DNA of 36,312 bases from a virus (lineage: Duplodnaviria; Heunggongvirae; Uroviricota; Caudoviricetes), in IMG/VR virus record IMGVR_UViG_2579778938_000006; one strand, given 5' to 3'. The notes under the pieces are model-generated. The model was not told the origin of the DNA. It did no database searches and saw nothing but the letters and a program-made list of their open reading frames with translations. The translations under genes and the position numbers were made by a program. This document shows, one piece after another, positions 10,226-27,483 of this stretch (position 1 is the first letter of the stretch; each line of letters starts with the position of its first letter).

Positions 10226-10270
10226 GCGTGGATCAGGCACCTGCATGAAAACCACTACACAAAGCGGGCA

Positions 10271-10283
10271 GGCGTGGCGGGGA
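10271..10283. other. cos: cos-like motif GGCGTGGCGGGGA (possible cohesive-end site)
   Basis: Matches the first 13 nt of the P2/186 19-nt cohesive end as I remember it (GGCG[A/T]GGCGGGGAAAGCA); diverges after that. Confidence 0.3.
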
Positions 10284-10409
10284 TACGAGCGCGCGCTAGA
10301 AACGTTTACTGATATTCTTGTAGTACATTGCATTTTTCTTTTTTTATGTCATATCATTAGCCATTTGAATAGGACATTATTATCAATTTGTTGTCTCTGA
10401 GGATAAGTT

Positions 10410-12191
10410 ATGAATTTTGATGCAACACCACTAAATATAAAAAACATTCTATCTGTAAAACAAAGATATGTTATTCCTCGTAATCAACGTGAGTTTAGTT
10501 GGGAAAAGCTTCAGCTTGAAGAGTTATGGCAAGATATTGTCAGAAACATAAGGTTGAATGAAGATGGACAGAACTTGGAGTGTTCAGAATATTTTATAGG
10601 GACTATTGTTCTTTCTGGAGCAGATAGTGATGATGTATTAGAAGTGGTTGATGGACAACAACGATTTTCAGTTATTACTATATTGCTTTCATTAATATCG
10701 CGTAAATTGCGTTCCTTAGGGCAAGATTCATTAGCGGATGATATATTTAAAACATATATCGTTACTGTGAGTCCTACATTTAGCAGAAGCCAATTAGCTT
10801 CAAATGGTGAGACATTTATTGAAAAATTAGCAAAAAATAGCGATAGAACATATTTTAAGTTAAAATATCAAGATCGCGAAGAGCATCAAGTTGATGAATC
10901 TTGTGAAGAGGATGTACGTATAAGTTATGCAGGAATTTTTCTTTCTAGAAAACTAGGGAGGAAATCACTCTGTTCTGCATTGTTGCGAGATGGTGCAAAA
11001 CATTATAATAACCAAGATTATATATTTTGTTTGACTGCTGTATATAGAATGATTACCAATTATTTGAAGTTGGTAAAAATATCTGTAGGTAAGGAGGATG
11101 ATGCTTATGATATTTTTGAAGTGTTGAATGCTCGAGGGATAAACTTAAGTTCAATTGATTTGATAAAGAATAAAGTATTCCAAACTTGCACTCAAACATA
11201 TCCGGTAGATATTGCAAAAACAAAATGGGATTATATCGTTACTCAAATTGAGTCTAGGGATAGTAATAGCACTATTGCTGATTATATTAGAACGTGGTGG
11301 CTTTCTAAGTATAATTATATTGGAGAAGATCAACTTTATCGTGCTTTTAAACGTGAGATTCAAGATGAGAATACTTTATTGTCATCAGCATCATTTCTGA
11401 ACGAATTATATGATGATGTTGAATTATACTGTAAAATAATAGCGCCAAATACAGATGACTGGCCTCAACCTGATCAGCGTGAAATTTACAACTCGTTAAA
11501 AGCATTCGAGATTTTTAATGTGAGTATTCCTCGACCATTTGTACTCTCATTACTTAGAAAACGTAAAGAGAAACCGAGAGCCCTTACACAATCAATGCTG
11601 ATAGAATGTTTGAAGTCCTTAGAGTCATTTCACTTTAAGTTTAATGCAGTATGTCGTCTAAGACCATCTGGAATCGATGCAAAATATTCTGTATTAGCAG
11701 TAAGAATGAATAAGGCATTAAATAAAAGAGATGTTGAGGGTGTTATTAATGACGCGTTAGATTATTTTACACAGAAAGGGCCTTCAGAAAATATATTCAA
11801 ACAAGCATTTTCAAAGAATATTGTTTATACAAATAAAAAGTCTGGGCAAAGGAAGTTGATTGTTTATATTTTTGACAAATTGGAACGTATCAGACGAGGG
11901 ACACGAGAGTTAAAAATGGATATAGTTTCTTTGGAACACATATCATCTCAAAGCAAAACTAACGAGTCAGTCGTGGGTATGATTGGTAATTTACTACCAC
12001 TCTGTTTTTCACTTAATGAAGATTGCAAAAATTATGAGTTGCACAAAAAAATAGAATCTTATAAAAAATCTGATTTAAAATTAGTTACAGAGTTTGTTAG
12101 TGAGTCAGAAGCAAGAGAACATAAATGGGATGATTCATTAATAAAAGAAAGAACAGATAGCTTGGCGTTAGAAACGTTTGCTAAAATATAA
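10410..12191 (+). CDS. DUF262 (ParB-like/GmrS) + DUF1524 (His-Me finger/GmrD) fusion nuclease, 593 aa; GmrSD/BrxU-like type IV restriction candidate
   Basis: Motifs VIPRNQREFSWE, VDGQQRFSVI, FEVLNARGINLSSIDLIKNK (DUF262) and SLEHISSQ...GNLLPL...NEDCKN (DUF1524-like); AT-rich; GAGGA SD. Confidence 0.8.
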   Translation: MNFDATPLNIKNILSVKQRYVIPRNQREFSWEKLQLEELWQDIVRNIRLNEDGQNLECSEYFIGTIVLSGADSDDVLEVVDGQQRFSVITILLSLISRKLRSLGQDSLADDIFKTYIVTVSPTFSRSQLASNGETFIEKLAKNSDRTYFKLKYQDREEHQVDESCEEDVRISYAGIFLSRKLGRKSLCSALLRDGAKHYNNQDYIFCLTAVYRMITNYLKLVKISVGKEDDAYDIFEVLNARGINLSSIDLIKNKVFQTCTQTYPVDIAKTKWDYIVTQIESRDSNSTIADYIRTWWLSKYNYIGEDQLYRAFKREIQDENTLLSSASFLNELYDDVELYCKIIAPNTDDWPQPDQREIYNSLKAFEIFNVSIPRPFVLSLLRKRKEKPRALTQSMLIECLKSLESFHFKFNAVCRLRPSGIDAKYSVLAVRMNKALNKRDVEGVINDALDYFTQKGPSENIFKQAFSKNIVYTNKKSGQRKLIVYIFDKLERIRRGTRELKMDIVSLEHISSQSKTNESVVGMIGNLLPLCFSLNEDCKNYELHKKIESYKKSDLKLVTEFVSESEAREHKWDDSLIKERTDSLALETFAKI

Positions 12192-12227: not shown

Positions 12228-13265
12228 TCACATACACTCCACAGAGTATTCACTGAATGAGATGATGTTTTTTTTAGCCCATTCATTAAGTTGCAGAATA
12301 TGTTTTTGAATTGGTAGTAACTCATTCATAACAAATACTTTCGCGGCCTTTTCCACATCCCCAAACCCCCCAACATTATTAGGCATAATCCCCATCATTT
12401 GCGGTGGCACACGATGCGCCGCCATCATGTCATCCCGGCTCACGTTCTTGATGTTTAGAAACTCATCCTTCGCCGCCACTTCTGACAACGGGATAATCTG
12501 AAGTCCGTCCTTTTTCCCGTTAGGCGAGTACATAAATAGGTTGCGGAAGTTACCTGGTCCTTTGGCGCTTTTCATCGCATTGCGGAGGTTGTTCACGTCC
12601 TCCTGGTTCTGCGCGGCATCGGTCATGTACATGATGAAGCCAGCATGACTGCCGTTTATGTAATACTTTCGACGGAACAGCGTGGCGGACTCATTGAGCA
12701 GGGCGGACGGAATAGCAGAAAGATAGCCGGGCAGGCCATAGATCTCCTGATTTATGTCCGGTTCCATCAGATGGAAAATGCTGCCTTTCGTGAACTGATA
12801 CGGCTGCGTAGTCATGCCGTATTGCACAAACCAGTAGGTATCCAGGTCTAATCCGCGTCGGGTGTATTTTGCCAGAGCAGGCTCAAGGGCGATAACTTCA
12901 CCGAACCGGTTTGTGCGTTTCTCCAGGTAGGCGTTACCAAATACCAGATAGTCCTGCACAAAACGCGAAAAAGCCTGCTGGCTGAGCAGCGGATGAGGGA
13001 TATAGGTACTGGTCAGAATGTTGCATTTCACCGCAATTGGTGAACTGTGGTGCACGGCAGCGCGGAAGGTGCGCGCCAGTCCGTCAAAGCTGACGGGCGG
13101 CTCATACCAGCGATCTGTCTGTACGCATTCCACATAGTCCAGCAGTTCTCGGCGGTCCAGAACAGGAACGGGATCGCCGAAGCTGAATACTTCGGCTGTA
13201 GTCTGGCTTTTAAGCTGGATCTGTTTCGTCGCCGCAGCGCGGTTTTTCTTACTCTTTCCCATCAA
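12228..13265 (-). CDS. Q: Portal protein (P2 gpQ)
   Basis: 345-aa ORF, P2 synteny (Q-P leftward, O-N-M-L rightward); overlaps the P stop. Confidence 0.85.
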   Translation of the reverse strand: MMGKSKKNRAAATKQIQLKSQTTAEVFSFGDPVPVLDRRELLDYVECVQTDRWYEPPVSFDGLARTFRAAVHHSSPIAVKCNILTSTYIPHPLLSQQAFSRFVQDYLVFGNAYLEKRTNRFGEVIALEPALAKYTRRGLDLDTYWFVQYGMTTQPYQFTKGSIFHLMEPDINQEIYGLPGYLSAIPSALLNESATLFRRKYYINGSHAGFIMYMTDAAQNQEDVNNLRNAMKSAKGPGNFRNLFMYSPNGKKDGLQIIPLSEVAAKDEFLNIKNVSRDDMMAAHRVPPQMMGIMPNNVGGFGDVEKAAKVFVMNELLPIQKHILQLNEWAKKNIISFSEYSVECM

Positions 13266-15028
13266 AAAATCTCCACAATATTGCTGGTATTGGCGGACTC
13301 GCCCTGCAGCGGTTCGTTAAACAGTGCGTGCATTGTTGCCCAGGCCAGATCGGCATGGCTGGTTTCTTCGCTGCGGCTGGCTTCATAGGTTGGGCGGTTG
13401 CCGCTGGCAGTGGTGGCGCGACGGATTGCCATAAAGGACTGCGCTATGTCGGTGTGCCCGGCGTCAAACTCTAGGCGGCGGTGGCTAATAATGTCGTAGG
13501 CCTTGAGTACCAGGGCGTTTTTAACGTTGGGGTTGTAGACAAACTCCCGGATGGCAGGAAAAAACGCTTTCACGTTCTCGTAAACCCCGTGACCGACGCC
13601 GGTTGAGTCGATACCGATATATGTCACGTTGTACTGTTCGGTCAGTTTTTTGATGGCGTCAGCCTGGGCGCGGAAGTCCATTCCGCGCCACTGGTGACGC
13701 TCAAGAATGCGGAACTTACCACCTGGCACGGCTGGCGGTGCCACCACCACGCATCCGGCGCTGTCGCCGTTCTGCGTACCTTTTGCCGGGTCATAACCGA
13801 TCCACACTTCGCGCCAGCCAAACGGGCGCAGCGCCAGTGCATGAAAGTCGGTCCAGACTTCCCAGCTGTCTACCATGCACGCCTGCAGCTCGCTGAGCGG
13901 GAATACGGACGCGAGATCGTCCACGAACTCACACATCAGCAGATTCTGGTATTCGTCCGGGCTGTACTCCATGCGCAACTGGTCAAGGTCGAACAGGTTA
14001 CATCCGCCGCGCACCGCATCTTCCACAGTGACTATCTGGCGGTACTGCCCGTCTGCGCACAGCAGGCCGGGGGCCAGATTGCTGTGGGACAGGTCGATGT
14101 CCACCTTATCGGCTTTGTTGCGCCCTCGGTTGAACAGCGCACCGGACCAGAACGGATAAGCACTGTGTGTCAGGCTGGATGGCGTGGAAAAATAGGTCTG
14201 TCGCCATTTTTTGTGAATAGCCATACCGGAAGCCACTTTGCGCAGCTCCTGGAATTTCGGTATCCAGAAATATTCATCCAGATACAGGTTGCCGTGGTAA
14301 CTCTGGGCCGTGCGGGCATTGGTGCCGAGGAAGTAAAGCGTGGCCCCGTTAGGAAGCACCATCGGATCACCTTTCAGCTCCACCTCGACTTCTTTGGCGA
14401 AATCGATGATGTACTGCTTAAAGACGTGAGCCTGTGCCTTACTGGCAGAAAGGAAAATCTGGTTACGTCCGGTAAGCAGGGCGTCAATCAGGGCCTCACG
14501 GGCAAAATAGAAGGTCGCGCCGATCTGGCGTGACTTTAGCAGGTTGCGGATGCGGTTGGTTTTTCCGGCTTCCCACCAGTGGCGCTGGTAGTTAAACATG
14601 GAGGAATGGAAAATTTCTTCCAGCTTCTCAATTTGTTCATCGGTGAAAACATTCTTTTCAGGCTGACGGCGTGGGCCTTTGTTGCGGTTGGCGACGTTAG
14701 GGTTTAAGTCGGCTTCGTTGCCGCCATTGTTAAACTTGCCGATCCGCGCGTGGCGTTCAGACTGGCGCGCCAGCAGGTCAATCTCTTTGAAATCTTTCCC
14801 TTCTTTGTGCTCCTTCATGATGAGCTGGCAGTAGCGTGCGGCGGTGGTGAGCTGCATCTGATCCAGCGGCCCATAGTCACCCCACTTGTCGCGTTTTTTC
14901 CAGCTGTGAACGGTTGCAACTTTCTCGCCCAGCATTTCAGCAATGCGGGCTACGCGGTATCCCTGAAAGTACAGCAGCATGGCCTGCCGACGGGGATCGA
15001 GATCTGCGGGTGTCAGTGTGGTGTTCAT
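13262..15028 (-). CDS. P: Terminase large (ATPase) subunit (P2 gpP)
   Basis: 588-aa ORF, synteny with Q; divergent from O. Confidence 0.85.
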   Translation of the reverse strand: MNTTLTPADLDPRRQAMLLYFQGYRVARIAEMLGEKVATVHSWKKRDKWGDYGPLDQMQLTTAARYCQLIMKEHKEGKDFKEIDLLARQSERHARIGKFNNGGNEADLNPNVANRNKGPRRQPEKNVFTDEQIEKLEEIFHSSMFNYQRHWWEAGKTNRIRNLLKSRQIGATFYFAREALIDALLTGRNQIFLSASKAQAHVFKQYIIDFAKEVEVELKGDPMVLPNGATLYFLGTNARTAQSYHGNLYLDEYFWIPKFQELRKVASGMAIHKKWRQTYFSTPSSLTHSAYPFWSGALFNRGRNKADKVDIDLSHSNLAPGLLCADGQYRQIVTVEDAVRGGCNLFDLDQLRMEYSPDEYQNLLMCEFVDDLASVFPLSELQACMVDSWEVWTDFHALALRPFGWREVWIGYDPAKGTQNGDSAGCVVVAPPAVPGGKFRILERHQWRGMDFRAQADAIKKLTEQYNVTYIGIDSTGVGHGVYENVKAFFPAIREFVYNPNVKNALVLKAYDIISHRRLEFDAGHTDIAQSFMAIRRATTASGNRPTYEASRSEETSHADLAWATMHALFNEPLQGESANTSNIVEIF

Positions 15029-15074
15029 GGCACAAACCTACAGCCTTGAATGAAGGCTTTCCCCGCCTGCGGTT

Positions 15075-15092
15075 TGTGTGGTTGTCGGTACA
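15075..15092. promoter_or_regulatory. TGT-N12-ACA dyad (Ogr/Delta activator site) in the divergent P/O late-promoter region
   Basis: TGTgtggttgtcggtACA; the 142-bp P-O intergenic region is where P2 late promoters PP/PO lie. Confidence 0.5.
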
Positions 15093-15170
15093 AATACCGC
15101 GCATTGTTTCACTGCCCCCATCACCGCAACCATAAGGCTCCAGTAAGTTTTTTCTAACGGAGCACGGCTC

Positions 15171-16004
15171 ATGACAGTGAAAGCAAAGCGTTTTCGCATC
15201 GGGGTGGAAGGTGCCACTACCGACGGACGTGAAATCCAGCGTGAATGGCTGGAACAGATGGCAGCCAGCTACAACCCGGCGGTGTATACCGCGCTGATTA
15301 ACCTTGAGCACATCAAGTCTTATCTGCCGGACAGCACCTTTAACCGCTACGGCAAGGTGACGGCGCTGTTTGCTGAAGAAATCACGGAAGGTCCGCTGGC
15401 GGGCAAGATGGCGCTGTATGCCGACGTTGAGCCAACGGAGTCCCTGGTGGAGCTGGTGAAAAAAGGCCAGAAATTATTCACATCTATGGAAGTCAGCCCA
15501 AAGTTTGCTGATACGGGCAAAGCCTACCTGGTCGGCCTGGCGGCCACTGATGACCCTGCCAGTCTGGGCACTGAAATGCTGACATTCAGCGCCAGTGCAG
15601 CCCATAACCCGCTGGCAAACCGCAAGCAGAATCCCGCCAATCTTTTTACCGCTGCAGAGGAAACGGTGATCGAACTGGAAGAAATCCAGGAGGACAAGCC
15701 GTCCCTGTTTGCCCGTGTCACGGCGCTGTTTACCAAAAAAGAGCAGTCCGATGACGCCCGGTTCTCTGATGTGCATAAGGCCGTGGAGCTGGTCGCCACT
15801 GAGCAGCAGAACCTGAGCGCACGCACCGAAAAATCCCTGTCTGAGCAGGAAGAACGCCTGTCTGAGCTGGAGACTGCTCTGCAGGAGCAGCAAACCGCCT
15901 TTAACGAACTGGTGAATAAGCTGAGTCATGAAGACAGCCGCCAGGACTACCGCCAGCGTGCAACAGGCGGTAACGCCCCCGCTGACACTCTGACCAATTG
16001 CTGA
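15171..16004 (+). CDS. O: Capsid scaffolding protein (P2 gpO)
   Basis: 277-aa ORF; synteny; acidic coiled-coil-like C-terminal half. Confidence 0.85.
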   Translation: MTVKAKRFRIGVEGATTDGREIQREWLEQMAASYNPAVYTALINLEHIKSYLPDSTFNRYGKVTALFAEEITEGPLAGKMALYADVEPTESLVELVKKGQKLFTSMEVSPKFADTGKAYLVGLAATDDPASLGTEMLTFSASAAHNPLANRKQNPANLFTAAEETVIELEEIQEDKPSLFARVTALFTKKEQSDDARFSDVHKAVELVATEQQNLSARTEKSLSEQEERLSELETALQEQQTAFNELVNKLSHEDSRQDYRQRATGGNAPADTLTNC

Positions 16005-16020
16005 TGGAGCACAAAACCTG

Positions 16021-17079
16021 ATGAAGAAGAATACCCGCTTTGCTTTTAACGCTTACCTGCAGCAACTGGCACGTCTGAACGGTGTGGCAGTTGAAGAACT
16101 GTCCAGCAAGTTCACTGTAGAGCCGTCTGTGCAGCAGACGCTGGAAGACCAGATCCAGCAGTCCGCCGCTTTCCTGACGCTGATTAACGTCACGCCAGTG
16201 ACTGAGCAGTCCGGTCAGCTGCTGGGGCTGGGTGTTGGCAGCACCATTGCCGGAACCACTGACACCACCGCGAAAGAGCGTGAACCTGTCGATCCGACGC
16301 TGATGGTCGATGTGGAATACAAATGCGAGCAGACCAACTTTGACACGGTGCTGACCTACGCGAAGCTGGACCTGTGGGCGAAGTTTCAGGATTTCCAGGT
16401 GCGTATCCGTGACGCCATCGTGAAACGTCAGGCACTGGACCGCATCATGATCGGCTTTAACGGCGTGAAGCGTGCGAAAACCTCCAACCGTAGTGAAAAC
16501 CCGCTGCTGCAGGATGTGAACAAAGGCTGGCTGCAGAAAATCCGTGAGGATGCACCGGATCACGTCATGGGCAGCACCACCACGGGCGGCGAAACCACAC
16601 CGGGTGCGGTGAAAGTCGGGAAAGGTGGCGAATATGCCAACCTGGACGCTGTGGTGATGGATGCGGTCAATGAGCTTATCGACGTGGTCTACCAGGACGA
16701 TGACGATCTGGTGGTGATTTGCGGTCGTGAACTGCTGTCTGACAAGTATTTCCCGCTGGTCAACAAAGAGCAGGAAAACAGTGAAAAACTGGCAGCCGAT
16801 ATGATCATCAGTCAGAAACGCATGGGTGGCCTGCAGGCCGTGCGTGCGCCGTTCTTCCCGCCGAATGCGCTGCTGATCACCCGTCTGGATAACCTGTCCA
16901 TCTACTGGCAGGAAGATACCCGCCGCCGTTCAGTTATCGACAACCCGAAACGTGACCGGATTGAAAATTTTGAATCCGTTAACGAAGCCTATGTGGTTGA
17001 GGACTACCGCTGCGCCGCACTGGTGGAAAACATCCAGATTGGTGACTTCAGCGCCGCCGCAGCAGAAACCGGAGTGTAA
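16021..17079 (+). CDS. N: Major capsid protein (P2 gpN)
   Basis: 352-aa ORF following O. Confidence 0.85.
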   Translation: MKKNTRFAFNAYLQQLARLNGVAVEELSSKFTVEPSVQQTLEDQIQQSAAFLTLINVTPVTEQSGQLLGLGVGSTIAGTTDTTAKEREPVDPTLMVDVEYKCEQTNFDTVLTYAKLDLWAKFQDFQVRIRDAIVKRQALDRIMIGFNGVKRAKTSNRSENPLLQDVNKGWLQKIREDAPDHVMGSTTTGGETTPGAVKVGKGGEYANLDAVVMDAVNELIDVVYQDDDDLVVICGRELLSDKYFPLVNKEQENSEKLAADMIISQKRMGGLQAVRAPFFPPNALLITRLDNLSIYWQEDTRRRSVIDNPKRDRIENFESVNEAYVVEDYRCAALVENIQIGDFSAAAAETGV

Positions 17080-17082
17080 TTC

Positions 17083-17733
17083 ATGAGCCTGAGTCCCGCA
17101 CGGCAGCATCGCCTGCGCGTTCAGGCTGAACAGACCGCTCGCGAGGGTGGCAGTGTTCGCCACGCGTCGGGCTATGACCTGATGCTGCTGCAACTGGCGG
17201 AAGACCGCCGCCGTCTCAAGGGCGTTCAGTCCACGGTCAAAAAAGCGGAAATCAAGGTGGAACTGCTGCCGAAATACGCCGCCTGGGCAGAGGGTGTCCT
17301 GGCTGGCGGAGGCGCGCAACAGGATGACGTGCTGATGTACGTGATGCTGTGGCGCATTGATGCCGGAGATTATGCCGGGGCGCTGGAGATCGGGCGTCAC
17401 GCCCTGCGTCATGGCTGGGTGATGCCGTTGGGTAACCGCAACGTGCAGACCGTGCTGGCAGAGGAAATGGCAGACGCGGCGCAGAGCGCAATGCTTGCCG
17501 CCACCGGCTTTGATGCTGATCTGTTGCTGCAGACGCTGGAGCTGACTGACGGTCTGGATATGCCGGACCAGTCACGGGCACGTCTGCATAAAGCGATTGG
17601 CGCTGTCCTGAGTGAAAGCAATCCGGCTTCCGCCCTTAATCATCTCAACCATGCGTTACAGCTCGATCCCCGCTGTGGCGTGAAAAAAGACAAACAGCAG
17701 CTGGAGCGCAGACTGCGCAATGACAGCCGCTGA
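17083..17733 (+). CDS. M: Terminase small/endonuclease subunit (P2 gpM)
   Basis: 216-aa ORF following N. Confidence 0.8.
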   Translation: MSLSPARQHRLRVQAEQTAREGGSVRHASGYDLMLLQLAEDRRRLKGVQSTVKKAEIKVELLPKYAAWAEGVLAGGGAQQDDVLMYVMLWRIDAGDYAGALEIGRHALRHGWVMPLGNRNVQTVLAEEMADAAQSAMLAATGFDADLLLQTLELTDGLDMPDQSRARLHKAIGAVLSESNPASALNHLNHALQLDPRCGVKKDKQQLERRLRNDSR

Positions 17734-17828
17734 CAGAACGTGCCCCCGCGCACGGGCGGCACGGGGTGGCGAAAGGCACTGCCACATCAAAACCCCGTCC
17801 ACCGCCCTTTATTTCAGGAGAAAGCAGC

Positions 17829-18293
17829 ATGAAGTTTGTTGCGCCAGAACAGGCACCGGAACAGGCGGAAATCATCAGAAATACGCCGTTCTGGCCTGAT
17901 GTGGACCTGTCGGAGTTTCGCAGTGTCATGCGCACTGACGGCACGGTGACGCAGCCGCGTTTAAAGCAGGTTGCGCTGTCGGCAATTTCGGAGGTCAACG
18001 CAGAGCTGTATGAGTTTCGCAGACGCCAGCAGATGCTGGGGTATGCCTCGCTGGCAGAAGTCCCGGCGGAACAACTGGACGGCAAAAGCGAGCGCATTCA
18101 GCACTATTTCAACGCGGTTTACTGCTGGGCACGCGCCATGCTCAACGAACGTTACCAGGACTATGACGCCACGGCATCCGGTGCGAAGCGGGGCGAGGAA
18201 CTGGCGGAAGCAAGCGGTGATTTATGGCGTGACGCCCGCTGGGCCATCAGCCGGGTGCAGGATGCGCCGCACTGCACAGTGGAGCTTATCTGA
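17829..18293 (+). CDS. L: Head completion/stabilisation protein (P2 gpL)
   Basis: AGGAG SD before ATG 17829; synteny. Confidence 0.8.
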   Translation: MKFVAPEQAPEQAEIIRNTPFWPDVDLSEFRSVMRTDGTVTQPRLKQVALSAISEVNAELYEFRRRQQMLGYASLAEVPAEQLDGKSERIQHYFNAVYCWARAMLNERYQDYDATASGAKRGEELAEASGDLWRDARWAISRVQDAPHCTVELI

Positions 18294-18496
18294 TGAAAGT
18301 GCGTGCGCATCAATATGACACGGTGGACGCACTTTGCTGGCGTCATTACGGGCGCACGCAGGGTGTCACGGAGCAGGTACTGAAGGCAAATCCGGGGCTT
18401 GCCGAATATGGCCCCTTTTTACCTCACGGGCTGCAGGTGGAGTTGCCGGACATTCCGACCACCACCACCGTGCAGACCGTCCAGCTATGGGACTGA
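18293..18496 (+). CDS. X: Tail protein X (P2 gpX, 67 aa)
   Basis: 67-aa ORF overlapping the L stop; size and position as P2 X. Confidence 0.8.
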   Translation: MKVRAHQYDTVDALCWRHYGRTQGVTEQVLKANPGLAEYGPFLPHGLQVELPDIPTTTTVQTVQLWD

Positions 18497-18499
18497 ATT

Positions 18500-18715
18500 A
18501 TGACGCTTGAGCGAATCAGCGCCTTTATCACGTACTGCATCGCCGTTGTGCTGGCCTGGCTGGGCGATTTGTCCATCAAGGATGCCTCAACGCTGGGCGG
18601 CCTGATGATTGGTGTGCTGATGCTGGCTATCAACTGGTACTACAAACACAAAGCCTACCAGCTTCTGCGCGACGGGCAGATCTCGCGGGAGGACTATGAA
18701 TCCATCAATCGTTAA
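18500..18715 (+). CDS. Holin (two-TMD class II, pinholin-like)
   Basis: 71 aa with two hydrophobic segments and a charged C-terminus; first gene of the lysis cassette. Confidence 0.7.
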   Translation: MTLERISAFITYCIAVVLAWLGDLSIKDASTLGGLMIGVLMLAINWYYKHKAYQLLRDGQISREDYESINR

Positions 18716-19208
18716 ACGCTGCCTTGTCGGGGGCGTGCTGGCTATTGCTGCCACGCTGCCGGGTTTTCAGCAGCTTCACACCTCCGTGGAGGGGCTGAAA
18801 CTGATTGCCGATTACGAAGGCTGTCGTCTGCAGCCGTATCAGTGCAGCGCGGGTGTCTGGACCGACGGCATTGGTAATACATCGGGCGTCATTCCCGGCA
18901 AAACAATCACGGAACGACAGGCAGCAGAAGGGCTGATCTCCAACATGCTGCGTGTGGAGCGGGCACTGGAAAGGTGTGTGAAGCAACAGCCACCACAGAA
19001 GGTGTATGACGCTACGGTGTCGTTTGCCTTCAACGTGGGGACGGGCAATGCCTGTAGTTCCACGCTGGTGAAATTGCTCAATCAGCGGCGCTGGGCGGAT
19101 GCGTGCCGACAGTTGCCGCGCTGGGTTTATGTAAAAGGTGTGTTTAATCAGGGGCTGGATAACCGCCGTGCGCGGGAGATGGCTTGGTGTTTACAGGGAG
19201 CAAACTGA
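18696..19208 (+). CDS. Endolysin (phage lysozyme), possible SAR-type N-terminus
   Basis: Lysozyme-like block EGLKLIADYEGCRLQPYQCSAGVWTDGIGNT; N-terminal Gly/Ala-rich weakly hydrophobic segment CLVGGVLAIAATLPGF. Confidence 0.8.
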   Translation: MNPSIVKRCLVGGVLAIAATLPGFQQLHTSVEGLKLIADYEGCRLQPYQCSAGVWTDGIGNTSGVIPGKTITERQAAEGLISNMLRVERALERCVKQQPPQKVYDATVSFAFNVGTGNACSSTLVKLLNQRRWADACRQLPRWVYVKGVFNQGLDNRRAREMAWCLQGAN

Positions 19209-19209
19209 A

Positions 19210-19587
19210 ATGAAAAAGAAATTAATCAGCGGACTGTTTCTGATGTTATGGATGGCGCTGTTAGTCGCAGCAATGGTGTATCCGCAGGGGATTTTTCCGG
19301 TACTGGCAGCGTCCGGCGTTTGGGTAGCCTGTTTGCTGACATGGGCGGTAATTCCGGTAGCACTGGCTGCGTTAATTAAGAATGGCCCGCTCTGGCAGGA
19401 GTTAAGGGCATCTTTGCTGAAGACAATTACCCGAAAAGAAAACGTATTTATCACCTGGGTGATGCGATTGCTGATTGTTGTAAGTCTCGCCTGGACGGGG
19501 TGGGCTATTACCCTGGTCTTTTATCTACTGACCGTTATTGCCTTCTGGATCACCCGTAATCAGATGGCGCAACAGGTAGCAGCATGA
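19210..19587 (+). CDS. lysA: LysA-like membrane protein (lysis timing)
   Basis: 125 aa, multiple TM segments; position after the endolysin. Confidence 0.7.
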   Translation: MKKKLISGLFLMLWMALLVAAMVYPQGIFPVLAASGVWVACLLTWAVIPVALAALIKNGPLWQELRASLLKTITRKENVFITWVMRLLIVVSLAWTGWAITLVFYLLTVIAFWITRNQMAQQVAA

Positions 19588-20012
19588 ACCGGTTGCTGCT
19601 GGTTGTGCTGGCGTTATTACTGGCGGCACTGGGCTGGCAGACGTGGCGGCTGGCTGATGCCAGCCAGACCATTAGCACGCAGGCAGACGAGCTGCAGAGC
19701 AAAAGCCAGGCACTGGCAAAGAGCAACAGCCAGCTTATCAGCCTGTCCATTCTGACTGAAACCAATAACCGGGAGCAGGCGCGGCTCTATGCCGAAGCAG
19801 AACAGACCAGCGCGCTGCTGAGACAACGACAACACCGGATCGAGGAACTGAAACGTGAGAACGAGGATTTACGCCGCTGGGCTGATACTCCTTTGCCTGC
19901 TGACATTATCCGGCTGCGGGAACGTCCGACGCTCACCGGAGGTGCAGCTTACCGTCAGTGGTTGTCCGCGAGTGACGCCGTGTCGGCTGGATCAGGCAGC
20001 GCCGCGCACTAA
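19584..20012 (+). CDS. lysB: LysB (Rz-like inner-membrane spanin)
   Basis: N-terminal TM anchor then coiled-coil-like region; position. Confidence 0.75.
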   Translation: MNRLLLVVLALLLAALGWQTWRLADASQTISTQADELQSKSQALAKSNSQLISLSILTETNNREQARLYAEAEQTSALLRQRQHRIEELKRENEDLRRWADTPLPADIIRLRERPTLTGGAAYRQWLSASDAVSAGSGSAAH

Positions 20013-20145
20013 CGGTGATCTGAACGCGTTGCTGGATGAAACGGAGGCCGCCTGGGCGGTCTGTGCAGACAAAGTGGACATGATTATTGCGTGTCAGGAG
20101 CGAAACAGTGAACAAACCACAATCCCTGCGCCACGCCCTAAATAA
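19855..20145 (+). CDS. lysC: LysC (Rz1-like outer-membrane lipoprotein spanin), overlapping lysB in another frame
   Basis: Signal peptide with lipobox LSGC; Pro-rich; starts inside lysB in a different frame. Confidence 0.7.
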   Translation: MRTRIYAAGLILLCLLTLSGCGNVRRSPEVQLTVSGCPRVTPCRLDQAAPRTNGDLNALLDETEAAWAVCADKVDMIIACQERNSEQTTIPAPRPK

Positions 20146-20539
20146 AGCGGTGCCTTATGTCCGCAATAACCCGGAAAAACTGCATCTGTTTGTGGATAAC
20201 GGTTCGCTGGTTGCCACGGGGGCCAGCTCCATGTCGTGGGAGTACCGTTACACCCTGAACGCGGTGATTGAGGATTTCAGCGGCGACCAGAATCTGTTGA
20301 TGGCCCCGGTTTTGCTGTGGCTGAGGGATAACCAGCCCGATGCCATCAATAACCCGGCGTTACGGGAAAAACTATTCACCTTTGAGGTGGATATTCTGCG
20401 CAACGATGTCTGTGATATCAGCTTGAACCTGCAACTGACGGAACGTGTGCTGGTCAGCACTGACGGCAGTGTGTCGAGCGTTGAAGCTGTAGCGGAACCC
20501 GATGAACCTGAAGAAATGTGGACGGTGAAACGTGGCTGA
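20087..20539 (+). CDS. R: Tail completion protein R (P2 gpR)
   Basis: 150-aa ORF, synteny; exact start uncertain. Confidence 0.7.
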   Translation: MRVRSETVNKPQSLRHALNKAVPYVRNNPEKLHLFVDNGSLVATGASSMSWEYRYTLNAVIEDFSGDQNLLMAPVLLWLRDNQPDAINNPALREKLFTFEVDILRNDVCDISLNLQLTERVLVSTDGSVSSVEAVAEPDEPEEMWTVKRG

Positions 20540-20984
20540 ACTGCAGAAAGTGGACGACTGGCTGAGTGCCTTGCTGGCGAATCTGGAACCAGCCGCCAGA
20601 AGCCGCATGATGCGCCAGCTGGCGCAGGAACTGCGCCGGACACAGCAGCAGAATATCAGGATGCAGCGCAACCCTGACGGCAGCAGTTATGAACCGCGAC
20701 GGGTAACAGCACGAAGTAAAAAAGGGCGCATCAAACGTCAGATGTTTGCAAAGCTGCGCACCACAAAATACCTGAAAACCGCCGCCAGCGCGGATTCTGC
20801 CAGCGTACAGTTTGAAGGTAAGGTGCAGCGCATTGCCCGCGTTCATCATTACGGCCTGCGCGATCGCGTCAGTCCAAAGGGGGGAGTCATTAAGTATCCA
20901 TCCCGAAAATTGCTGGGTTTAAATGAACATACTGAAAATGAAGTAAGAGATTTACTTTTAAAGTATTTTTTGATGAAAAATTAG
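20532..20984 (+). CDS. S: Tail completion protein S (P2 gpS)
   Basis: 150-aa ORF; the last ~30 codons run into AT-rich DNA. Confidence 0.8.
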   Translation: MAELQKVDDWLSALLANLEPAARSRMMRQLAQELRRTQQQNIRMQRNPDGSSYEPRRVTARSKKGRIKRQMFAKLRTTKYLKTAASADSASVQFEGKVQRIARVHHYGLRDRVSPKGGVIKYPSRKLLGLNEHTENEVRDLLLKYFLMKN

Positions 20985-20989
20985 AATGT

Positions 20990-21520
20990 TTACGCACTTA
21001 ATAAACTTAAATAACTTTTTATGCTTTGGCAAAAAGGGAAAAGGTCTATTTTAATTTTCCAGTTTTTTTTGTTTTGAACCCCAGAAGCAATAATAGAACC
21101 ATCCCAATATTTTATTCCATTTTTGCCGGTCTTTTTTGTTAACTCAAAACTTAATGCGTGAATAATTTTATTGCAGCATTCGCGTATAGAACCTTTAACA
21201 TGACCATCTATAACAAAAAGTATATTTTCATGTTCTTCAAATGCTTCTTTCTCAGGTGAGTAATCTGGGTTCCACTCATGTTCACTAGTGTCTTGGAGAA
21301 TTCGTAGTTTTGTACAAAGGCTAATAAGATTGTTGCTAATGGTATATTCCAACCATCCGTTGTACGATAACTCCTCCATTTCAAATTCAGTTACTATAGA
21401 ATCATCATATACTTTCTGTGTGGAATATATACGCTGTAAATAAAATTCAGATGAACAGCATAATTGCTCAATTATTCTTGCGTGTTCTTCTATAGCGTAA
21501 TAATCAATTGGATGGCTCAT
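20990..21520 (-). CDS. Hypothetical moron protein (176 aa; 189 aa if started at 21559) between tail genes S and V on the opposite strand
   Basis: AT-rich ORF antiparallel to the late operons; AAAGG SD before ATG 21520; convergent with S, divergent from V. Confidence 0.6.
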   Translation of the reverse strand: MSHPIDYYAIEEHARIIEQLCCSSEFYLQRIYSTQKVYDDSIVTEFEMEELSYNGWLEYTISNNLISLCTKLRILQDTSEHEWNPDYSPEKEAFEEHENILFVIDGHVKGSIRECCNKIIHALSFELTKKTGKNGIKYWDGSIIASGVQNKKNWKIKIDLFPFCQSIKSYLSLLSA

Positions 21521-21551
21521 TCTTTTACCTTTCTTCGATTGGAATTGTATT

Positions 21552-21569
21552 TGTGTCATTTACCACACA
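21552..21569. promoter_or_regulatory. TGT-N12-ACA dyad (Ogr/Delta site) upstream of V (PV-like late promoter)
   Basis: TGTgtcatttaccacACA centred ~55 bp upstream of the V ATG. Confidence 0.45.
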
Positions 21570-21615
21570 AGGACGTATTGATGCCATAGATTCAAGGTCC
21601 GTGCAACCTAACCCT

Positions 21616-22194
21616 ATGAACGCACAACTAACCGAAATCATGCGCCTTATCACCAACCTGATCCGCACTGGGGTAGTCACCGAAGTGGATCGGGAGAACT
21701 GGCTTTGCCGGGTGAAAACGGGCGAGCTTGAAACCAACTGGATCAGCTGGCTGACGCTGCGTGCCGGGAATGCCCGGACATGGTGGCGACCATCGGAAGG
21801 TGAGCAGGTGGTGCTGCTGAGTCTGGGCGGAAATCTGGAAACCGCCTTTGCGTTGCCCGCCATCTATTCGAATCAGTTCGCTCCACCGTCGACGTCGGCG
21901 GATGCCTGCGTGACAGAGCATCCTGACGGCGGCTGGTTTGAATATGAACCCGCCACCGGGCGCTGGTATGTCAGGGGCATCAAATCCATGGTTATTGAGG
22001 CTGTCGACAACATCACCATGAAAACCAGTGAGTTTGTACTGGAGGCTGACCGCACGCGCATTAACAGCGAAGTGGTGATCAATGGTGGCGTTACCCAGGG
22101 CGGCGGAGCGATGAGTTCTAACGGGATTGTGGTTGATGCGCATCAGCATACTGGCGTCCTGAAAGGCGGCGACACAACCGGAGGCCCGGTATGA
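21616..22194 (+). CDS. V: Baseplate spike/assembly protein V (P2 gpV)
   Basis: 192 aa; synteny V-W-J-I. Confidence 0.8.
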   Translation: MNAQLTEIMRLITNLIRTGVVTEVDRENWLCRVKTGELETNWISWLTLRAGNARTWWRPSEGEQVVLLSLGGNLETAFALPAIYSNQFAPPSTSADACVTEHPDGGWFEYEPATGRWYVRGIKSMVIEAVDNITMKTSEFVLEADRTRINSEVVINGGVTQGGGAMSSNGIVVDAHQHTGVLKGGDTTGGPV

Positions 22195-22550
22195 CGCTTT
22201 ATAGCGGGATGAACAATACCAGCGGCAAAGCCATTACTGATATTGACCATCTGCGCCAGTCGGTGCGGGACATTCTGCTGACGCCACAGGGTAGCCGCAT
22301 TGCCCGTCGTGAATATGGTTCCCTGCTGTCGGCACTGATAGACCAGCCACAAAATCCGGCATTACGCCTGCAGGTCATGTCGGCAGTGTATGTGGCGCTG
22401 AGTCGCTGGGAGCCACGGCTGACGCTGGATTCCATCACCATCAACAGCAACTTTGACGGTTCTATGGTGGTGGAGCTGACCGGGCGGCGGAATAACGGTG
22501 TGCCTGTGTCCCTTTCCGTATCAACAGGAGCAGAGAATGGCAGTGATTGA
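22191..22550 (+). CDS. W: Baseplate protein W (gp25-like)
   Basis: 119 aa; overlaps the V stop; synteny. Confidence 0.85.
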   Translation: MTLYSGMNNTSGKAITDIDHLRQSVRDILLTPQGSRIARREYGSLLSALIDQPQNPALRLQVMSAVYVALSRWEPRLTLDSITINSNFDGSMVVELTGRRNNGVPVSLSVSTGAENGSD

Positions 22551-23445
22551 CCTTTCGCAGTTGCCTGCGCCGCAGATTGTGGATGTGCCGGACTTTGAGA
22601 CGCTGCTTGCCGAACGCAAGGCAGAATTTGTGGCGCTTCATCCGAAAGATGAACAGGAGGCTGTGATGCGTACGCTGGAACTGGAATCTGAACCCGTCAC
22701 CAAATTGTTGCAGGAGAACGCTTATCGTGAGCTGCTTCTGCGCCAGCGCATTAACGAAGCCGCGCAGGCGGTGATGGTGGCTTATGCGATGGGCGGCGAT
22801 CTGGACCAGCTCGCCGCCAATTACAACGTGAAACGCCTGACGGTGATACCTGCTGATGATGACGCTGTGCCGCCCGTTGCGGCTGTGATGGAAAGCGATG
22901 AAGCGTTACGCCTGCGTGTGCCTGCAGCCTTTGAGGGGCTTTCAGTTGCGGGGCCAACTGCAGCTTATGAATTTCATGCCCGAAGCGCCGACGGTCGGGT
23001 GGCGGATGCCAGTGCAACCAGTCCGGCCCCTGCAGAGGTGGTGCTGACTGTCCTGAGTCGCGAAGGCGACGGAACAGCAGAAAAAGACTTGCTGGATGTG
23101 GTGGAGAACGCCCTGAACAGTGAGAACGTCCGCCCGGTGGCTGACCGTCTGACGGTTCGCAGCGCAGAAATCATCCCGTACCGCGTGGAAGCCACCATTT
23201 TTCTCTACCCGGGGCCGGAAGCAGAGCCGGTAATGGCAGCGGCAAAAGCCAGCCTGCAGAAGTACATCGCCAGTCAGACGCGTCTTGGTCGGGATATTCG
23301 CCGTAGCGCCATCTTTGCCGCCCTGCATGTTGAGGGTGTGCAGCGTGTGGAGCTGGCTTCTCCTCTGGCGGATGTGGTCCTGAACAAAACACAGGCGGCA
23401 TCATGTACGCAGTGGAGCGTAACCAACGGAGGAACGGATGAATAG
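22537..23445 (+). CDS. J: Baseplate protein J
   Basis: 302 aa from MAVIDLSQLP; synteny. Confidence 0.85.
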   Translation: MAVIDLSQLPAPQIVDVPDFETLLAERKAEFVALHPKDEQEAVMRTLELESEPVTKLLQENAYRELLLRQRINEAAQAVMVAYAMGGDLDQLAANYNVKRLTVIPADDDAVPPVAAVMESDEALRLRVPAAFEGLSVAGPTAAYEFHARSADGRVADASATSPAPAEVVLTVLSREGDGTAEKDLLDVVENALNSENVRPVADRLTVRSAEIIPYRVEATIFLYPGPEAEPVMAAAKASLQKYIASQTRLGRDIRRSAIFAALHVEGVQRVELASPLADVVLNKTQAASCTQWSVTNGGTDE

Positions 23446-24043
23446 TCTGCTGCCACCGGGTTCAACACCACTGGAGCGCCGACTGGCGCAAACCTGCAGC
23501 GGGATTTCTGATCTGCAGGTGCCGCTGCGTGACTTGTGGAATCCGGCGACCTGTCCGGTCAGCTTCCTGCCTTATCTCGCCTGGGCGTTCTCTGTGGATC
23601 GCTGGGATGAGGGCTGGACTGAAAGCGTCAAACGTCAGGTGGTGAAGGATGCTTTTTATATTCATCAGCATAAAGGAACCACCAGTGCCGTGCGGCGGGT
23701 AGTGGAACCGTTCGGCTTCCTGATCCGCATTATTGAGTGGTGGCAGACCGGAGAAACACCGGGCACGTTTCGCCTGGATATCGGCGTGCAGGACCAGGGC
23801 ATTACTGAAGATACCTATCTGGAACTTGAGCGACTGATAAGCGATGCCAAACCATGTAGCCGTCACATGATCGGCATGTCCATTAACCTGCAGACCAGCG
23901 GCCCGCATTGGGTGGGAGTCGCCAGCTATCTTGGCGAAGAAATCACGATCTATCCGTATATCAACGAAACGATTATTTCCGGTGGCACCGCGCATGAAGG
24001 CGGGGCGGTCCATGTTATTGACACAATGAGAGTGAATCCATGA
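23438..24043 (+). CDS. I: Baseplate/tail protein I
   Basis: 201 aa; synteny. Confidence 0.85.
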   Translation: MNSLLPPGSTPLERRLAQTCSGISDLQVPLRDLWNPATCPVSFLPYLAWAFSVDRWDEGWTESVKRQVVKDAFYIHQHKGTTSAVRRVVEPFGFLIRIIEWWQTGETPGTFRLDIGVQDQGITEDTYLELERLISDAKPCSRHMIGMSINLQTSGPHWVGVASYLGEEITIYPYINETIISGGTAHEGGAVHVIDTMRVNP

Positions 24044-25791
24044 GCACAAAATTTTATACCCTGCTGACGGATATTGGCGCGGCGAAACTTGCCAGCGCCG
24101 CCGCGCTCGGTGTGCCTTTAAAAATTACCCATATGGCGGTCGGTGATGGCGGCGGAACATTGCCAACGCCGGACGCAAAGCAGACTGGGCTGGTGAATGA
24201 GAAACGCCGGGCTGCGCTGAATATGCTGTACATCGACCCGCAGAACAGCAGCCAGATTATTGCTGAACAGGTGATCCCTGAAAACGAGGGTGGTTGGTGG
24301 ATACGTGAAGTGGGCCTGTTTGATGAGTCCGGAGCATTGATTGCCGTGGGCAACTGCCCGGAAAGCTATAAGCCGCAACTGGCTGAAGGCAGCGGGCGTA
24401 CCCAGACCGTGCGTATGGTGTTGATTACCAGCAGCACGGACAATATCACCCTGAAAATCGACCCTGCTGTAGTACTGGCAACTCGCAAGTATGTGGATGA
24501 CAAAATATCAGAGCACGAACAGTCACGACGTCACCCGGACGCCTCGCTGACCGCAAAAGGTTTTACTCAGTTAAGCAGTGCGACCAACAGTGAATCCGAA
24601 ATACTGGCCGCAACACCGAAGGCAGTGAAGGCTGTATATGACCTTGCAGCAGGTAAGGCACCTGTCAGTCACACGCACCCGTGGAATCAGATAACAGGTG
24701 TACCTGCAGCCTCGCTGACGGTAAAAGGCACCGTGCAACTCAGCAGCGCCACTAACAGCACATCAGAAACGCAGGCTGCCACACCAAAGGCAGTGAAGGC
24801 GGCATATGACCTTGCAGCAGGTAAGGCACCTGTCAGTCACACGCACCCGTGGAGCCAGATAACGGATGTGCCTGCAGCTTCACTGACGGTAAAAGGCACC
24901 GTGCAACTCAGCAGCGCCACTAACAGCACGTCAGAAACGCAGGCTGCCACACCAAAAGCTGTGAAGGCTGTATATGACCTTGCCAATGGAAAACAACCTG
25001 CCGACGCCACGCTGACCGCACTGGCAGGCCTTGCCACTGCGGCAGACAAACTTCCGTATTTTACGGGGAATGATACAGCCAGCCTGACAACCCTGACTAA
25101 CGTTGGACGGAATATTCTGGATAAAGCAAGCACACAGGCGGTTATTCAATATCTTGGTCTGAGCGATGCAAGTGGATACGTTGGACGCTGGCTGAATACC
25201 CGGGTTTTCACCTCATCAGGTACGTACACCCCGACGCCAGGAACAAAACGGATCAGGGTCACAATAACTGGCGGCGGTGGCGGTGGGGGCGGCTGCAAGG
25301 CTATATCCAATAATGAAACGTTTTTCGGTGCTGGCGGTGGGGCCGGTGGAACAATAATTTCAATAATGACCCCGACACAGAATAGTTATCCAGTCACTAT
25401 CGGCGCAGGTGGGGCCGGTGGTGTTAGTGCGACGTACGGCATCAATGGCGGTAATAGCTTATTCGCATCGTTAATTGCTCCTGGTGGCGCAGGTGGCGGG
25501 AAAGTGGGAGTTACAAATACAAACGGCGGTAACGGAGGTGTGCCGAGTACTGGCGATATCCGCATCACTGGTGGAAATGGAGGCGACGGTCAGTCCGGAA
25601 ATATCAGCGTCAGCGGTGAAGGCGGAACATCGTACTGGGGTGGCGGTGGACGCGCAGGCGCTGGCGGTGGCGTTAGCGGTAAGGCATATGGTTCAGGCGG
25701 AGGTGGTGCATACGATGCCGGTTATAGCGGAACCAGTATGACGGGCGGGAAAGGCGCTGCAGGGATTTGTATTATCGAGGAGTTTGCATAA
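24040..25791 (+). CDS. H: Tail fibre protein H with tandem 56-aa repeats and a glycine-rich C-terminal domain
   Basis: N-terminus MSTKFYTLLTDIGAAKLA typical of P2 H; 168-bp tandem DNA repeats; C-terminal GGxGG-rich ~190 aa ending GICIIEEFA. Confidence 0.85.
   Translation: MSTKFYTLLTDIGAAKLASAAALGVPLKITHMAVGDGGGTLPTPDAKQTGLVNEKRRAALNMLYIDPQNSSQIIAEQVIPENEGGWWIREVGLFDESGALIAVGNCPESYKPQLAEGSGRTQTVRMVLITSSTDNITLKIDPAVVLATRKYVDDKISEHEQSRRHPDASLTAKGFTQLSSATNSESEILAATPKAVKAVYDLAAGKAPVSHTHPWNQITGVPAASLTVKGTVQLSSATNSTSETQAATPKAVKAAYDLAAGKAPVSHTHPWSQITDVPAASLTVKGTVQLSSATNSTSETQAATPKAVKAVYDLANGKQPADATLTALAGLATAADKLPYFTGNDTASLTTLTNVGRNILDKASTQAVIQYLGLSDASGYVGRWLNTRVFTSSGTYTPTPGTKRIRVTITGGGGGGGGCKAISNNETFFGAGGGAGGTIISIMTPTQNSYPVTIGAGGAGGVSATYGINGGNSLFASLIAPGGAGGGKVGVTNTNGGNGGVPSTGDIRITGGNGGDGQSGNISVSGEGGTSYWGGGGRAGAGGGVSGKAYGSGGGGAYDAGYSGTSMTGGKGAAGICIIEEFA
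24541..24990 (+). repeat. Tandem 168-bp repeat (~2.7 copies) inside tail fibre gene H
   Basis: Units begin at 24541, 24709 and 24877 with a few substitutions; encode ASLTxKGxxQLSSATNSxSExxAATPKAVKAxYDLAAGKAPVSHTHPWxQITxVP. Confidence 0.85.
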
Positions 25792-26204
25792 TGAATGCGT
25801 CATATGCAGTTATTGAAAATGGGATGGTTGTGAATGTCATTGTCTGGGATGGTGAGGATGAATTCACTGTGCCGGATAATCTGCAGCTCATTAATATTTC
25901 TGATATCAGTGAGCAGCCCGGAATCGGCTGGGCGTATTCAGACGGGGTATTTACTGCGCCGCTCCCTCCGGAACGTTCTCATGATGAACTGGTAGCTGAC
26001 GCTGAACAGAAAAAACAGTCGCTGATAGACGCAGCAATGGTCAATATCAGCGTGATTCAGTTAAAGCTGCAGGCCGGGCGCAAACTGACGCAAGAGGAAA
26101 CTACCCGACTTAACGTTGTGCTGGATTATATCGAGGCTGTGACGGCAACAAATACCAGCACCGCACCTGATATTATTTGGCCTGTTTTCCCTGCAAGCAG
26201 ATAA
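25791..26204 (+). CDS. G: Tail fibre assembly chaperone (P2 gpG/Tfa family)
   Basis: 137 aa starting at the ATG that overlaps the H stop; position after H. Confidence 0.75.
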   Translation: MNASYAVIENGMVVNVIVWDGEDEFTVPDNLQLINISDISEQPGIGWAYSDGVFTAPLPPERSHDELVADAEQKKQSLIDAAMVNISVIQLKLQAGRKLTQEETTRLNVVLDYIEAVTATNTSTAPDIIWPVFPASR

Positions 26205-26216
26205 ATACCGTCATTT

Positions 26217-26234
26217 TGTGTGAATAACGGTACA
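26217..26234. promoter_or_regulatory. TGT-N12-ACA dyad (Ogr/Delta site) upstream of FI (PF-like late promoter)
   Basis: TGTgtgaataacggtACA centred ~85 bp upstream of the FI ATG. Confidence 0.5.
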
Positions 26235-26310
26235 ACTGCGCTTAGCTGCTTGTCAGACACAATCACTTCAACATAGGGCGAAGCCTAATCCAATCAGGAG
26301 GTTCGCCACT

Positions 26311-27483
26311 ATGGCTCAGGATTACCACCACGGAGTGCGCGTTGTTGAAGTCAACGAAGGCACTCGATCCATTACCACGGTGAGCACCGCCATCGTGGGC
26401 ATGGTCTGCACGGGCGATGATGCCGATGCAAAAATGTTCCCTCTTAATAAACCCGTGCTGATCACTGATGTGCTTACTGCCAGCGGTAAGGCGGGTGAAT
26501 CCGGTACGCTGGCCCGTTCGCTGGATGCCATCGCTGACCAGGCAAAACCCGTGACCGTTGTTGTGCGTGTGCCGCAGGGTGAAACGGAAGAAGAAACCAC
26601 GACCAATATCATCGGCGCAGTGACTGCTGAAGGTAAAAAAACTGGTATGAAAGCCCTGTTATCTGCCCAGTCACAGCTCGGTGTTAAACCGCGCATTCTC
26701 GGCGTGCCGGGGCACGATAATAAAGCCGTTGCTACTGAGTTGCTGGGCGTGGCGCAAAGCCTGCGTGGGTTTGCTTACCTGTCAGCGTATGGCTGCAAGA
26801 CGGTGCAGGAGGCGATCACTTACCGTAAAAACTTCAGTCAGCGTGAAGGGATGCTGATTTGGCCTGACTTTACTGGCTGGGACACGGTGCTGAATGCCGA
26901 CGCAACGGCATATGCCACCGCCCGTGCGCTTGGTCTGCGTGCCAAAATTGATGAGCAGACAGGGTGGCACAAAAGCCTGTCCAACGTGGGCGTGAACGGT
27001 GTCACCGGAATTTCTGCTGATGTGTTCTGGGATCTGCAGGACCCGGCAACTGATGCGGGACTGCTTAACCAGAACGATGTTACCACACTTATCCGCAAAG
27101 ACGGCTTTCGCTTCTGGGGTTCCCGCTGTCTGAGTGATGACCCACTCTTTGCCTTTGAAAACTACACCCGCACGGCGCAGGTGCTGATGGACACGATGGC
27201 AGAAGCGCCAATGTGGGCGGTCGACAAACCGCTGAATCCGTCGCTGGCCCGCGACATTATCGAAGGTATCCGCGCCAAAATGCGCAGCCTGATCAGTCAG
27301 GGCTATCTCATTGGTGGCGATTGCTGGCTGGATGAGTCGGTGAACGACAAAGACACTCTGAAAGCTGGAAAACTCACCATCGACTACGACTACACACCAG
27401 TGCCGCCACTTGAAAACCTGATGCTGCGTCAGCGCATCACCGATCAGTACCTGGTGAATTTCGCCAGCCAGGTCAGCGCGTAA
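26311..27483 (+). CDS. FI: Contractile tail sheath protein FI
   Basis: 390 aa; AGGAGG SD; synteny. Confidence 0.9.

Follow-up and report, generated by a model that had tools for sequence, protein, structure and literature searches.

The 36,312-nucleotide viral record IMGVR_UViG_2579778938_000006 from IMG/VR (hereafter the window, meaning this whole stretch of DNA) is a P2-like prophage belonging with the related group of Fels-2, 4LV2017 and Cartapus (Felsduovirus/Elveevirus). Upstream of its late operons lie three dyads matching TGT-N12-ACA, the consensus described for Ogr-type late promoters (PMC3931495, citing Christie and Calendar 1985 and Julien and Calendar 1995). We propose, with a probability of roughly 85%, that these dyads are Ogr-family activator sites serving four promoters that share one geometry, and that the messages beginning with the terminase large subunit gene P and the baseplate spike gene V are leaderless.

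Placement and conservation of three probable activator dyads

The initial annotation, made from the sequence alone, had located TGT-N12-ACA dyads in the P/O intergenic region, upstream of V and upstream of FI, and all three are present exactly there as perfect matches: at 15075-15092 (TGTGTGGTTGTCGGTACA; extended form 15074-15093), shared by the divergent promoters PP and PO; at 21552-21569 (TGTGTCATTTACCACACA) for PV; and at 26217-26234 (TGTGTGAATAACGGTACA) for PF. Its spacings from dyad centre to start codon were also right, at 87.5 bp for O (ATG at 15171), 85.5 bp for FI (26311) and 55.5 bp for both V (21616) and P (15028, minus strand). The sites stand upstream of each of the late operons P-Q, O...S, V...G and FI...D, which are ordered as in P2 and whose genes were identified with Pfam: the terminase large subunit P (13262-15028, minus strand), the scaffold O (15171-16004, plus strand), the baseplate spike V (21616-22194, plus strand) and the sheath FI (26311-27483, plus strand). 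That these are the late-promoter positions of a P2-like phage is borne out by the P2 and 186 records, in which homologous activator sites are annotated.

The same annotation had argued that three such dyads exceed chance expectation, and had named dyads equally frequent inside coding regions as evidence to the contrary. The genome-wide count that it called for shows no enrichment, with nine matches in the window against 9.44 +/- 3.07 in shuffled sequence, and taken alone this count speaks against the argument on its own terms. The remaining six matches (14634, 15017, 27527, 29522, 35339 and 35994) are in coding or host DNA. Placement is what departs from chance: the non-coding DNA in front of the late operons, approximately 343 nt in total, contains three dyads where about 0.06 would be expected (Poisson P ~4e-5). 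The longer form TTGT-N12-ACAA occurs in the window at these three sites only (0.79 expected), a number reached in 6 of 100 shuffles, and a window-wide scan for a longer consensus with one mismatch allowed was uninformative (10 versus 6.15).

We compared the FI and V upstream regions across 79 relatives from a viral contig collection. Relatives from that collection carrying the O gene were at least 99% identical and hence uninformative, so for the P/O region we used species-representative genomes instead, one per bacterial species (64 loci), together with 16 further loci from Budvicia, Photorhabdus, Xenorhabdus, Providencia, Morganella, Proteus and Moellerella. Upstream of FI, a perfect dyad begins 92-94 bp before the ATG (centre 83.5-85.5 bp) in 79 of 79 relatives, and these comprise 54 distinct upstream sequences of four unrelated types, some of them only ~30% identical to the window, which is the random level. 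A perfect dyad likewise precedes V in all 80 sequences (the relatives plus the window), centred 54.5-56.5 bp from the ATG and at 55.5 bp in 77 of them. The slot just upstream of V is filled by at least eight unrelated sequences, in some cases different accessory genes on the reverse strand, in others directly the end of gene S, while the PV dyad stays fixed. Between P and O there is a single perfect dyad at 56/64 and 13/16 of the species-level loci. Its centre lies exactly 55.5 bp from the P ATG at 54/64 and 13/16 (67 of 79 usable loci), with no indels, and on the P-invariant loci of the 64-species set the spacing between dyad and O ATG varies between 81.5 and 100.5 bp. Because the position of the dyads is fixed in relatives although the flanks are often unrelated, we consider them functional.

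This pattern bears on the idea that Ogr plays no part and that the dyads arose by chance or serve a host regulator such as CRP (TGTGA...TCACA). The window count does equal expectation, as this idea would predict, and half-sites beginning TGTG resemble CRP half-sites. The CRP consensus, however, is TGT-N10-ACA, as opposed to N12 here; the placement of the dyads is conserved in all relatives, even where the flanks are unrelated; the records of P2 and 186 label the homologous sites as places where the activator binds; and the element itself encodes an Ogr homologue. We therefore regard a chance or host-regulator origin as extremely improbable. The homologue (33239-33457, plus strand) is a C4 zinc-finger late activator (MMICPLCG...CQNINC) that matches Pfam Ogr_Delta (PF04606, E = 5e-22) and PHROG 603 (transcription regulation); its translation contains the CX2C...CX4C motif, and it follows gene D, as in P2. 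With an Ogr_Delta gene in the window, homologous sites in P2 and 186 and conservation across unrelated flanks, the assignment of the dyads as Ogr-family activator sites is almost certain.

One further match, the dyad TGTG-N10-CACA at 15017-15034 (TGTGGTGTTCATGGCACA), spans the start codon of P and lies 58 bp away from the true P/O dyad. We considered whether it might be an extra or autoregulatory Ogr site and rejected this; the dyad is found in just 5 of 37 distinct relatives, and for this reason it is probably a chance by-product of the coding sequence and of the sequence at -1 to -6.

The initial annotation also had the V site overlapping the 5' end of the reverse-strand accessory gene that precedes V. 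This holds for the longest open reading frame (ORF) only, which starts at ATG 21559, and not for the start used in Cartapus, which corresponds to ATG 21520 of the window and is preceded by a Shine-Dalgarno-like AAAGG. Given the Cartapus start and this upstream sequence, ATG 21520 is likely the start of the gene, and the PV dyad probably lies upstream of the accessory gene and not within it.

A proposed shared geometry for four late promoters

The roughly 30-bp difference in centre-to-ATG spacing had been taken as a hint of different promoter geometry at V and P. To compare the promoters directly we aligned cluster representatives differing by more than 20% on the dyad centre, oriented along transcription. 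A -10-like hexamer, nAnnnT, appears at an equal offset in the four promoter classes, beginning 43.5-44.5 bp from the dyad centre. It is present in 20/22 P clusters (typically TAnnnT), in 23/24 O clusters (typically AAACAT or AACCAT, offsets 44/45), in 7/8 V clusters (CAACCT and others) and in 4/4 FI clusters (nAACAT, offset 44). Taking this hexamer, which lies 43.5-48.5 bp from the centre, as positions -12 to -7, we predict for each of the four classes a start 55.5 bp away from the dyad centre, in agreement with the annotated geometry of P2 and 186. The hint thus gives way to a difference in leader length, the hexamer offset being the same throughout: we predict a single geometry, with leaders of approximately 30 nt for O and FI and of zero for V and P. 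Scans of the three dyad regions for sigma-70 consensus promoters found none, as is expected for activator-dependent promoters.

At PP, the -10-like element is TAGGTT (15035..15040, minus strand), at -12 to -7 from the A of the P ATG. Its TAnnnT pattern is kept at the exact offset, also in the Photorhabdus, Xenorhabdus and Providencia loci, and it is homologous to TAGCCT of P2 (3023-3028), which lies 7 nt upstream of the annotated transcription start site at 3016. On the other side of the same dyad, the PO -10-like element CAACCAT (AACCAT; 15127..15133, plus strand) occupies the position homologous to GAAACT of P2, upstream of the annotated start at 3127. A putative -35-like TTGTTT (15104..15109, plus strand; about -36 to -31) falls within the block CGYGTTGTTTC (15100-15110), which is conserved across diverged O-side cluster representatives at the PO -35 position. 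The predicted PO start is at ~15139-15142, giving a leader of ~30 nt with GGAG at 15159-15162 before the ATG at 15171. PF is similar in layout, with a -10-like CAACAT (26269..26274, plus strand; nAACAT in all four clusters), a predicted start at 26281 and a 30-nt leader carrying AGGAGG (26296-26301) ahead of the ATG at 26311. At PV, the -10-like CAACCT (21604..21609, plus strand) stands at -12 to -7 from the A of the V ATG, and nAnnnT is found at this offset in seven of eight unrelated clusters.

An alternative is that there are two geometries after all: at PV and PP the activator would bind nearer to the polymerase, with its centre at, say, about -41, and the messages would have short leaders (10-15 nt). 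In its favour, V and P do have a centre-to-ATG distance ~30 bp below that of O and FI, and the starts in this element are predictions only. Set against this are the identical hexamer offset from the dyad in the four classes, with the hexamer ending 6 nt before the ATG at V and P, and the lack of a conserved hexamer 10-15 nt further upstream. The would-be leader contains no Shine-Dalgarno sequence, and the V start in the P2 record is annotated on the V ATG itself. Finally, the P and V distances are invariant to the base pair while that of O drifts, as expected if the ATG is +1. We consider two geometries unlikely, and favor a single geometry with leaders of different length.

We also considered whether Ogr, acting leftward from the PV dyad, might activate the accessory gene that precedes V. 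The corresponding +1, at ~21505, would fall inside that ORF, and no nAnnnT hexamer was seen at the required place when the sequence was read by eye; this candidate was dropped.

Predicted leaderless starts of V and P

With the start 55.5 bp from the dyad centre, the predicted PV start coincides with the V start codon (21616..21618, plus strand). The P2 record places the V transcription start site and the start of the V coding sequence on the same base, 10308, and the V N-termini of P2 and the window align. We thus predict from the sequence that V is leaderless, in agreement with the P2 annotation. With reference to Christie and Calendar 1985, P2 has been listed as one of the few known sources of leaderless mRNA in E. 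coli (PMC4633059). For P the same arithmetic puts the predicted PP start on the A of the start codon, at 15028 (ATG 15026..15028, minus strand), as supported by the invariance of the 55.5-bp distance and by alignment with the P proteins (gpP) of P2 and 186. In the window the -10 element is followed by six bases and then the ATG, and the 23-nt leader of P2 is absent; it is absent as well from Cartapus, Fels-2, 4LV2017 and most of the species-level relatives. A search restricted to ATG (GTG and TTG were not included) found an in-frame ATG at every locus where the P start could be placed. Within 20 nt before their ATGs, P and V show neither GGAG nor AGGA, while O has GGAG and FI has AGGAGG. The hexamer upstream of P also varies among loci (TATGTT, TATTTT, TAATCT, TAGTCT), and this TAnnnT variation fits a -10 element and not a Shine-Dalgarno site.

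These predictions depend on the P start being correctly assigned. The RefSeq record of Klebsiella phage 4LV2017 (NC_047818) annotates its terminase large subunit at 13949-15667, 16 codons shorter than in Cartapus and Fels-2, likely because the real ATG has no ribosome-binding site. Following that record, initiation could instead be at M17 (14980), which would leave a 48-nt leader, and the want of a Shine-Dalgarno sequence before ATG 15028 would be consistent with such a start. Several observations argue otherwise. Residues 1-16 of P align from M1 with gpP of P2 and 186, including an invariant DPRRQA; among codons 2-20, extra alleles are concentrated at third positions (36, versus 16 at first and 14 at second positions); M17 is not conserved, with A or L at position 17 in P2, 186 and many relatives; and Cartapus and Fels-2 carry the long form. 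On the strength of the alignment from M1, the third-position variation and the unconserved M17, ATG 15028 is, judged by its sequence, the true P start, and initiation at M17 is very unlikely.

We accordingly keep the longer P and predict that the P-Q mRNA is leaderless in the lineage of the window. The clade with leaderless P would span Escherichia, Citrobacter, Klebsiella, Pantoea and Erwinia through to Xenorhabdus, Photorhabdus and Providencia. It is reasonably likely, in our estimate, that throughout this large Enterobacterales clade of P2-like phages the terminase-portal operon is leaderless, its AUG being the Ogr-dependent +1, without the 23-nt leader and Shine-Dalgarno sequence of P2, 186 and PSP3. 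A literature search that covered little of the older P2 literature returned no report of a leaderless P in P2-like phages, which is a weak negative.

A sub-group of loci including Pectobacterium and Brenneria has a P2-like P N-terminus and either a half dyad only or a dyad shifted by 1-2 bp, with a -10 element TAGCCT seven bases before the P ATG. This sub-group also looks nearly leaderless, and its arrangement appears intermediate between the layouts of P2 and the window.

We suggest the following mechanism. Judging from its homologues (P2 Ogr, P4 Delta and 186 B), the Ogr-family protein encoded at 33239-33457 would bind the three dyads. From there, centred ~55.5 bp upstream of the starts, it would bring RNA polymerase to the four promoters, each with a weak -10 and no usable -35. 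In the P2 system the activator contacts the RNA polymerase alpha subunit from about -55. The 15075-15092 dyad would drive PP leftward and PO rightward, the 21552-21569 dyad PV and the 26217-26234 dyad PF. The O and FI messages would carry ~30-nt leaders with strong Shine-Dalgarno sequences, and the V...G and P-Q messages would begin with the A of the ATG as +1, without a leader. Leaderless initiation at P and V may keep the translation of terminase, portal, spike and baseplate proteins below that of scaffold, capsid, sheath and tube, in line with a dosage rationale in which terminase, portal and spike would be needed in few copies and scaffold and sheath in many.

Several points count against this interpretation as a whole. 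The bare TGT-N12-ACA motif is at chance frequency in the window. The relatives are non-independent samples, yet their spacers differ by more than 20% between clusters and the P side is free of indels. All starts are extrapolated from the P2 and 186 annotations and from hexamer spacing, and a start 1-2 nt from the A could give a very short leader instead of none. At PO the -10 element is ambiguous, with a second, weaker nAnnnT peak 6-7 bp downstream in 15/24 clusters, which makes the exact start uncertain.

Element context and comparison with known P2-like systems

The window covers nearly the entire prophage, from a tyrosine integrase (734-1921) to the host junction after ogr, and includes a DinI-like (Tum-like) gene at 8206-8511. 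Beyond ogr are two host genes that we take to be a ybjL-like gene (33693-35378) and grxA (36055-36312), named by eye from their translations. Around all three dyads, DNA identity is 95-99% to Escherichia phages Cartapus and 500465-1 and to Klebsiella 4LV2017-like phages, and within the V and FI genes it is ~84-86% to Fels-2 and SopE-phi. Between the replication region and gene Q, in the slot occupied by old and tin in P2, are two cargo genes (9017-12191). The first (9017-10135) encodes a 372-residue protein that matches the PADLOC candidate system PDC-S31 (E = 2e-23) and, weakly, DUF2971; the second (10410-12191) encodes a 593-residue GmrSD-type endonuclease (PF03235 and PF07510) that matches PADLOC HEC-06 (E = 7e-75). 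These are probably anti-phage defence cargo. The AT-rich accessory gene between S and V (20990-21559, minus strand) has the slot and orientation of P2 orf30. Its sole match was to PHROG 18838, of unknown function, and searches of Pfam and PADLOC gave none.

Ogr-type late promoters are already textbook knowledge for P2-like phages (PMC3931495), and leaderless V is known for P2. What is added here is that the sites in this prophage group were previously unannotated, and that a leaderless terminase operon is a modestly new variant; the picture of P2 late regulation is unchanged. For annotation, the results supply a dependable rule for finding late promoters in a very common group of prophages, TTGT-N12-ACAA followed by a -10 hexamer from 44 bp past the centre, and a leaderless P would explain why gene callers disagree on the P start, as for the short 4LV2017 form. 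If the proposal is right, two essential late operons are translated from leaderless messages, a rarity in E. coli and its relatives, and no ribosome-binding site precedes the first gene in half of the late operons, an arrangement that could limit the output of low-copy proteins. The leadered P of P2 and 186 and the leaderless P of Fels-2-like phages, being the same gene under the same activator, would then form a natural matched pair for the study of leaderless initiation and protein dosage.

Among characterized systems, P2 is the closest guide. Under Ogr, and also P4 Delta, its four operons are served from three activator-site positions as in the window, with one site common to the divergent P and O operons. 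For pO and pP the P2 record gives a single activator site. By our placement its dyad centre is at 3071.5, and 55.5 bp separate this point from either annotated start (3016 and 3127); pV and pF activator sites are annotated at homologous places. P2 late transcription requires Ogr and the RNA polymerase alpha subunit, and is blocked by rpoA109. Like the window, P2 has weak -10 elements, no -35 and a V start codon on the transcript start, and the position of its reverse accessory gene orf30 immediately upstream of the PV site matches the layout seen here. The two differ in that the P2 sites are imperfect (TGT-N12-cCA, and TGT-N11-ACA at PV), whereas all three in the window are perfect and extend to TTGT-N12-ACAA. 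They differ again at P: the P2 gene has a 23-nt leader counted from a mapped start, a GGCGAGG Shine-Dalgarno sequence and a dyad centre 78.5 bp from the ATG, in contrast to 55.5 bp and no leader.

Phages 186 (B-dependent p12, pV and pJ) and PSP3 resemble the window in that the divergent terminase and scaffold operons share a B-protein site lying between them and the sheath gene is preceded by another; their activator is of the same zinc-finger family. Unlike that of the window, their terminase gene is leadered, with a Shine-Dalgarno sequence and a centre 78.5 bp from the ATG. Upstream of its V homologue, 186 has the left half-site alone at the equivalent position, where the window has a perfect dyad. 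The layout of Fels-2, 4LV2017 and Cartapus is that of the window, with P at 55.5, O at 87.5, V at 55.5 and FI at 81.5-85.5 bp from a perfect dyad; no promoters are annotated in their records, and the dyad spacers and the gene upstream of V differ. We set phiCTX aside as a comparison because its intergenic layout is different: it lacks such a dyad, the start codon there is GTG and a Shine-Dalgarno site is present. The classical leaderless mRNAs of E. coli (lambda cI from PRM, P2 V and Tn1721 tetR) have the AUG at the 5' end and no Shine-Dalgarno sequence, an arrangement shared by V and P of the window, whose 5' ends are predicted. The window would depart from these classical cases in that its leaderless message opens with the first gene of an essential packaging operon, P-Q.

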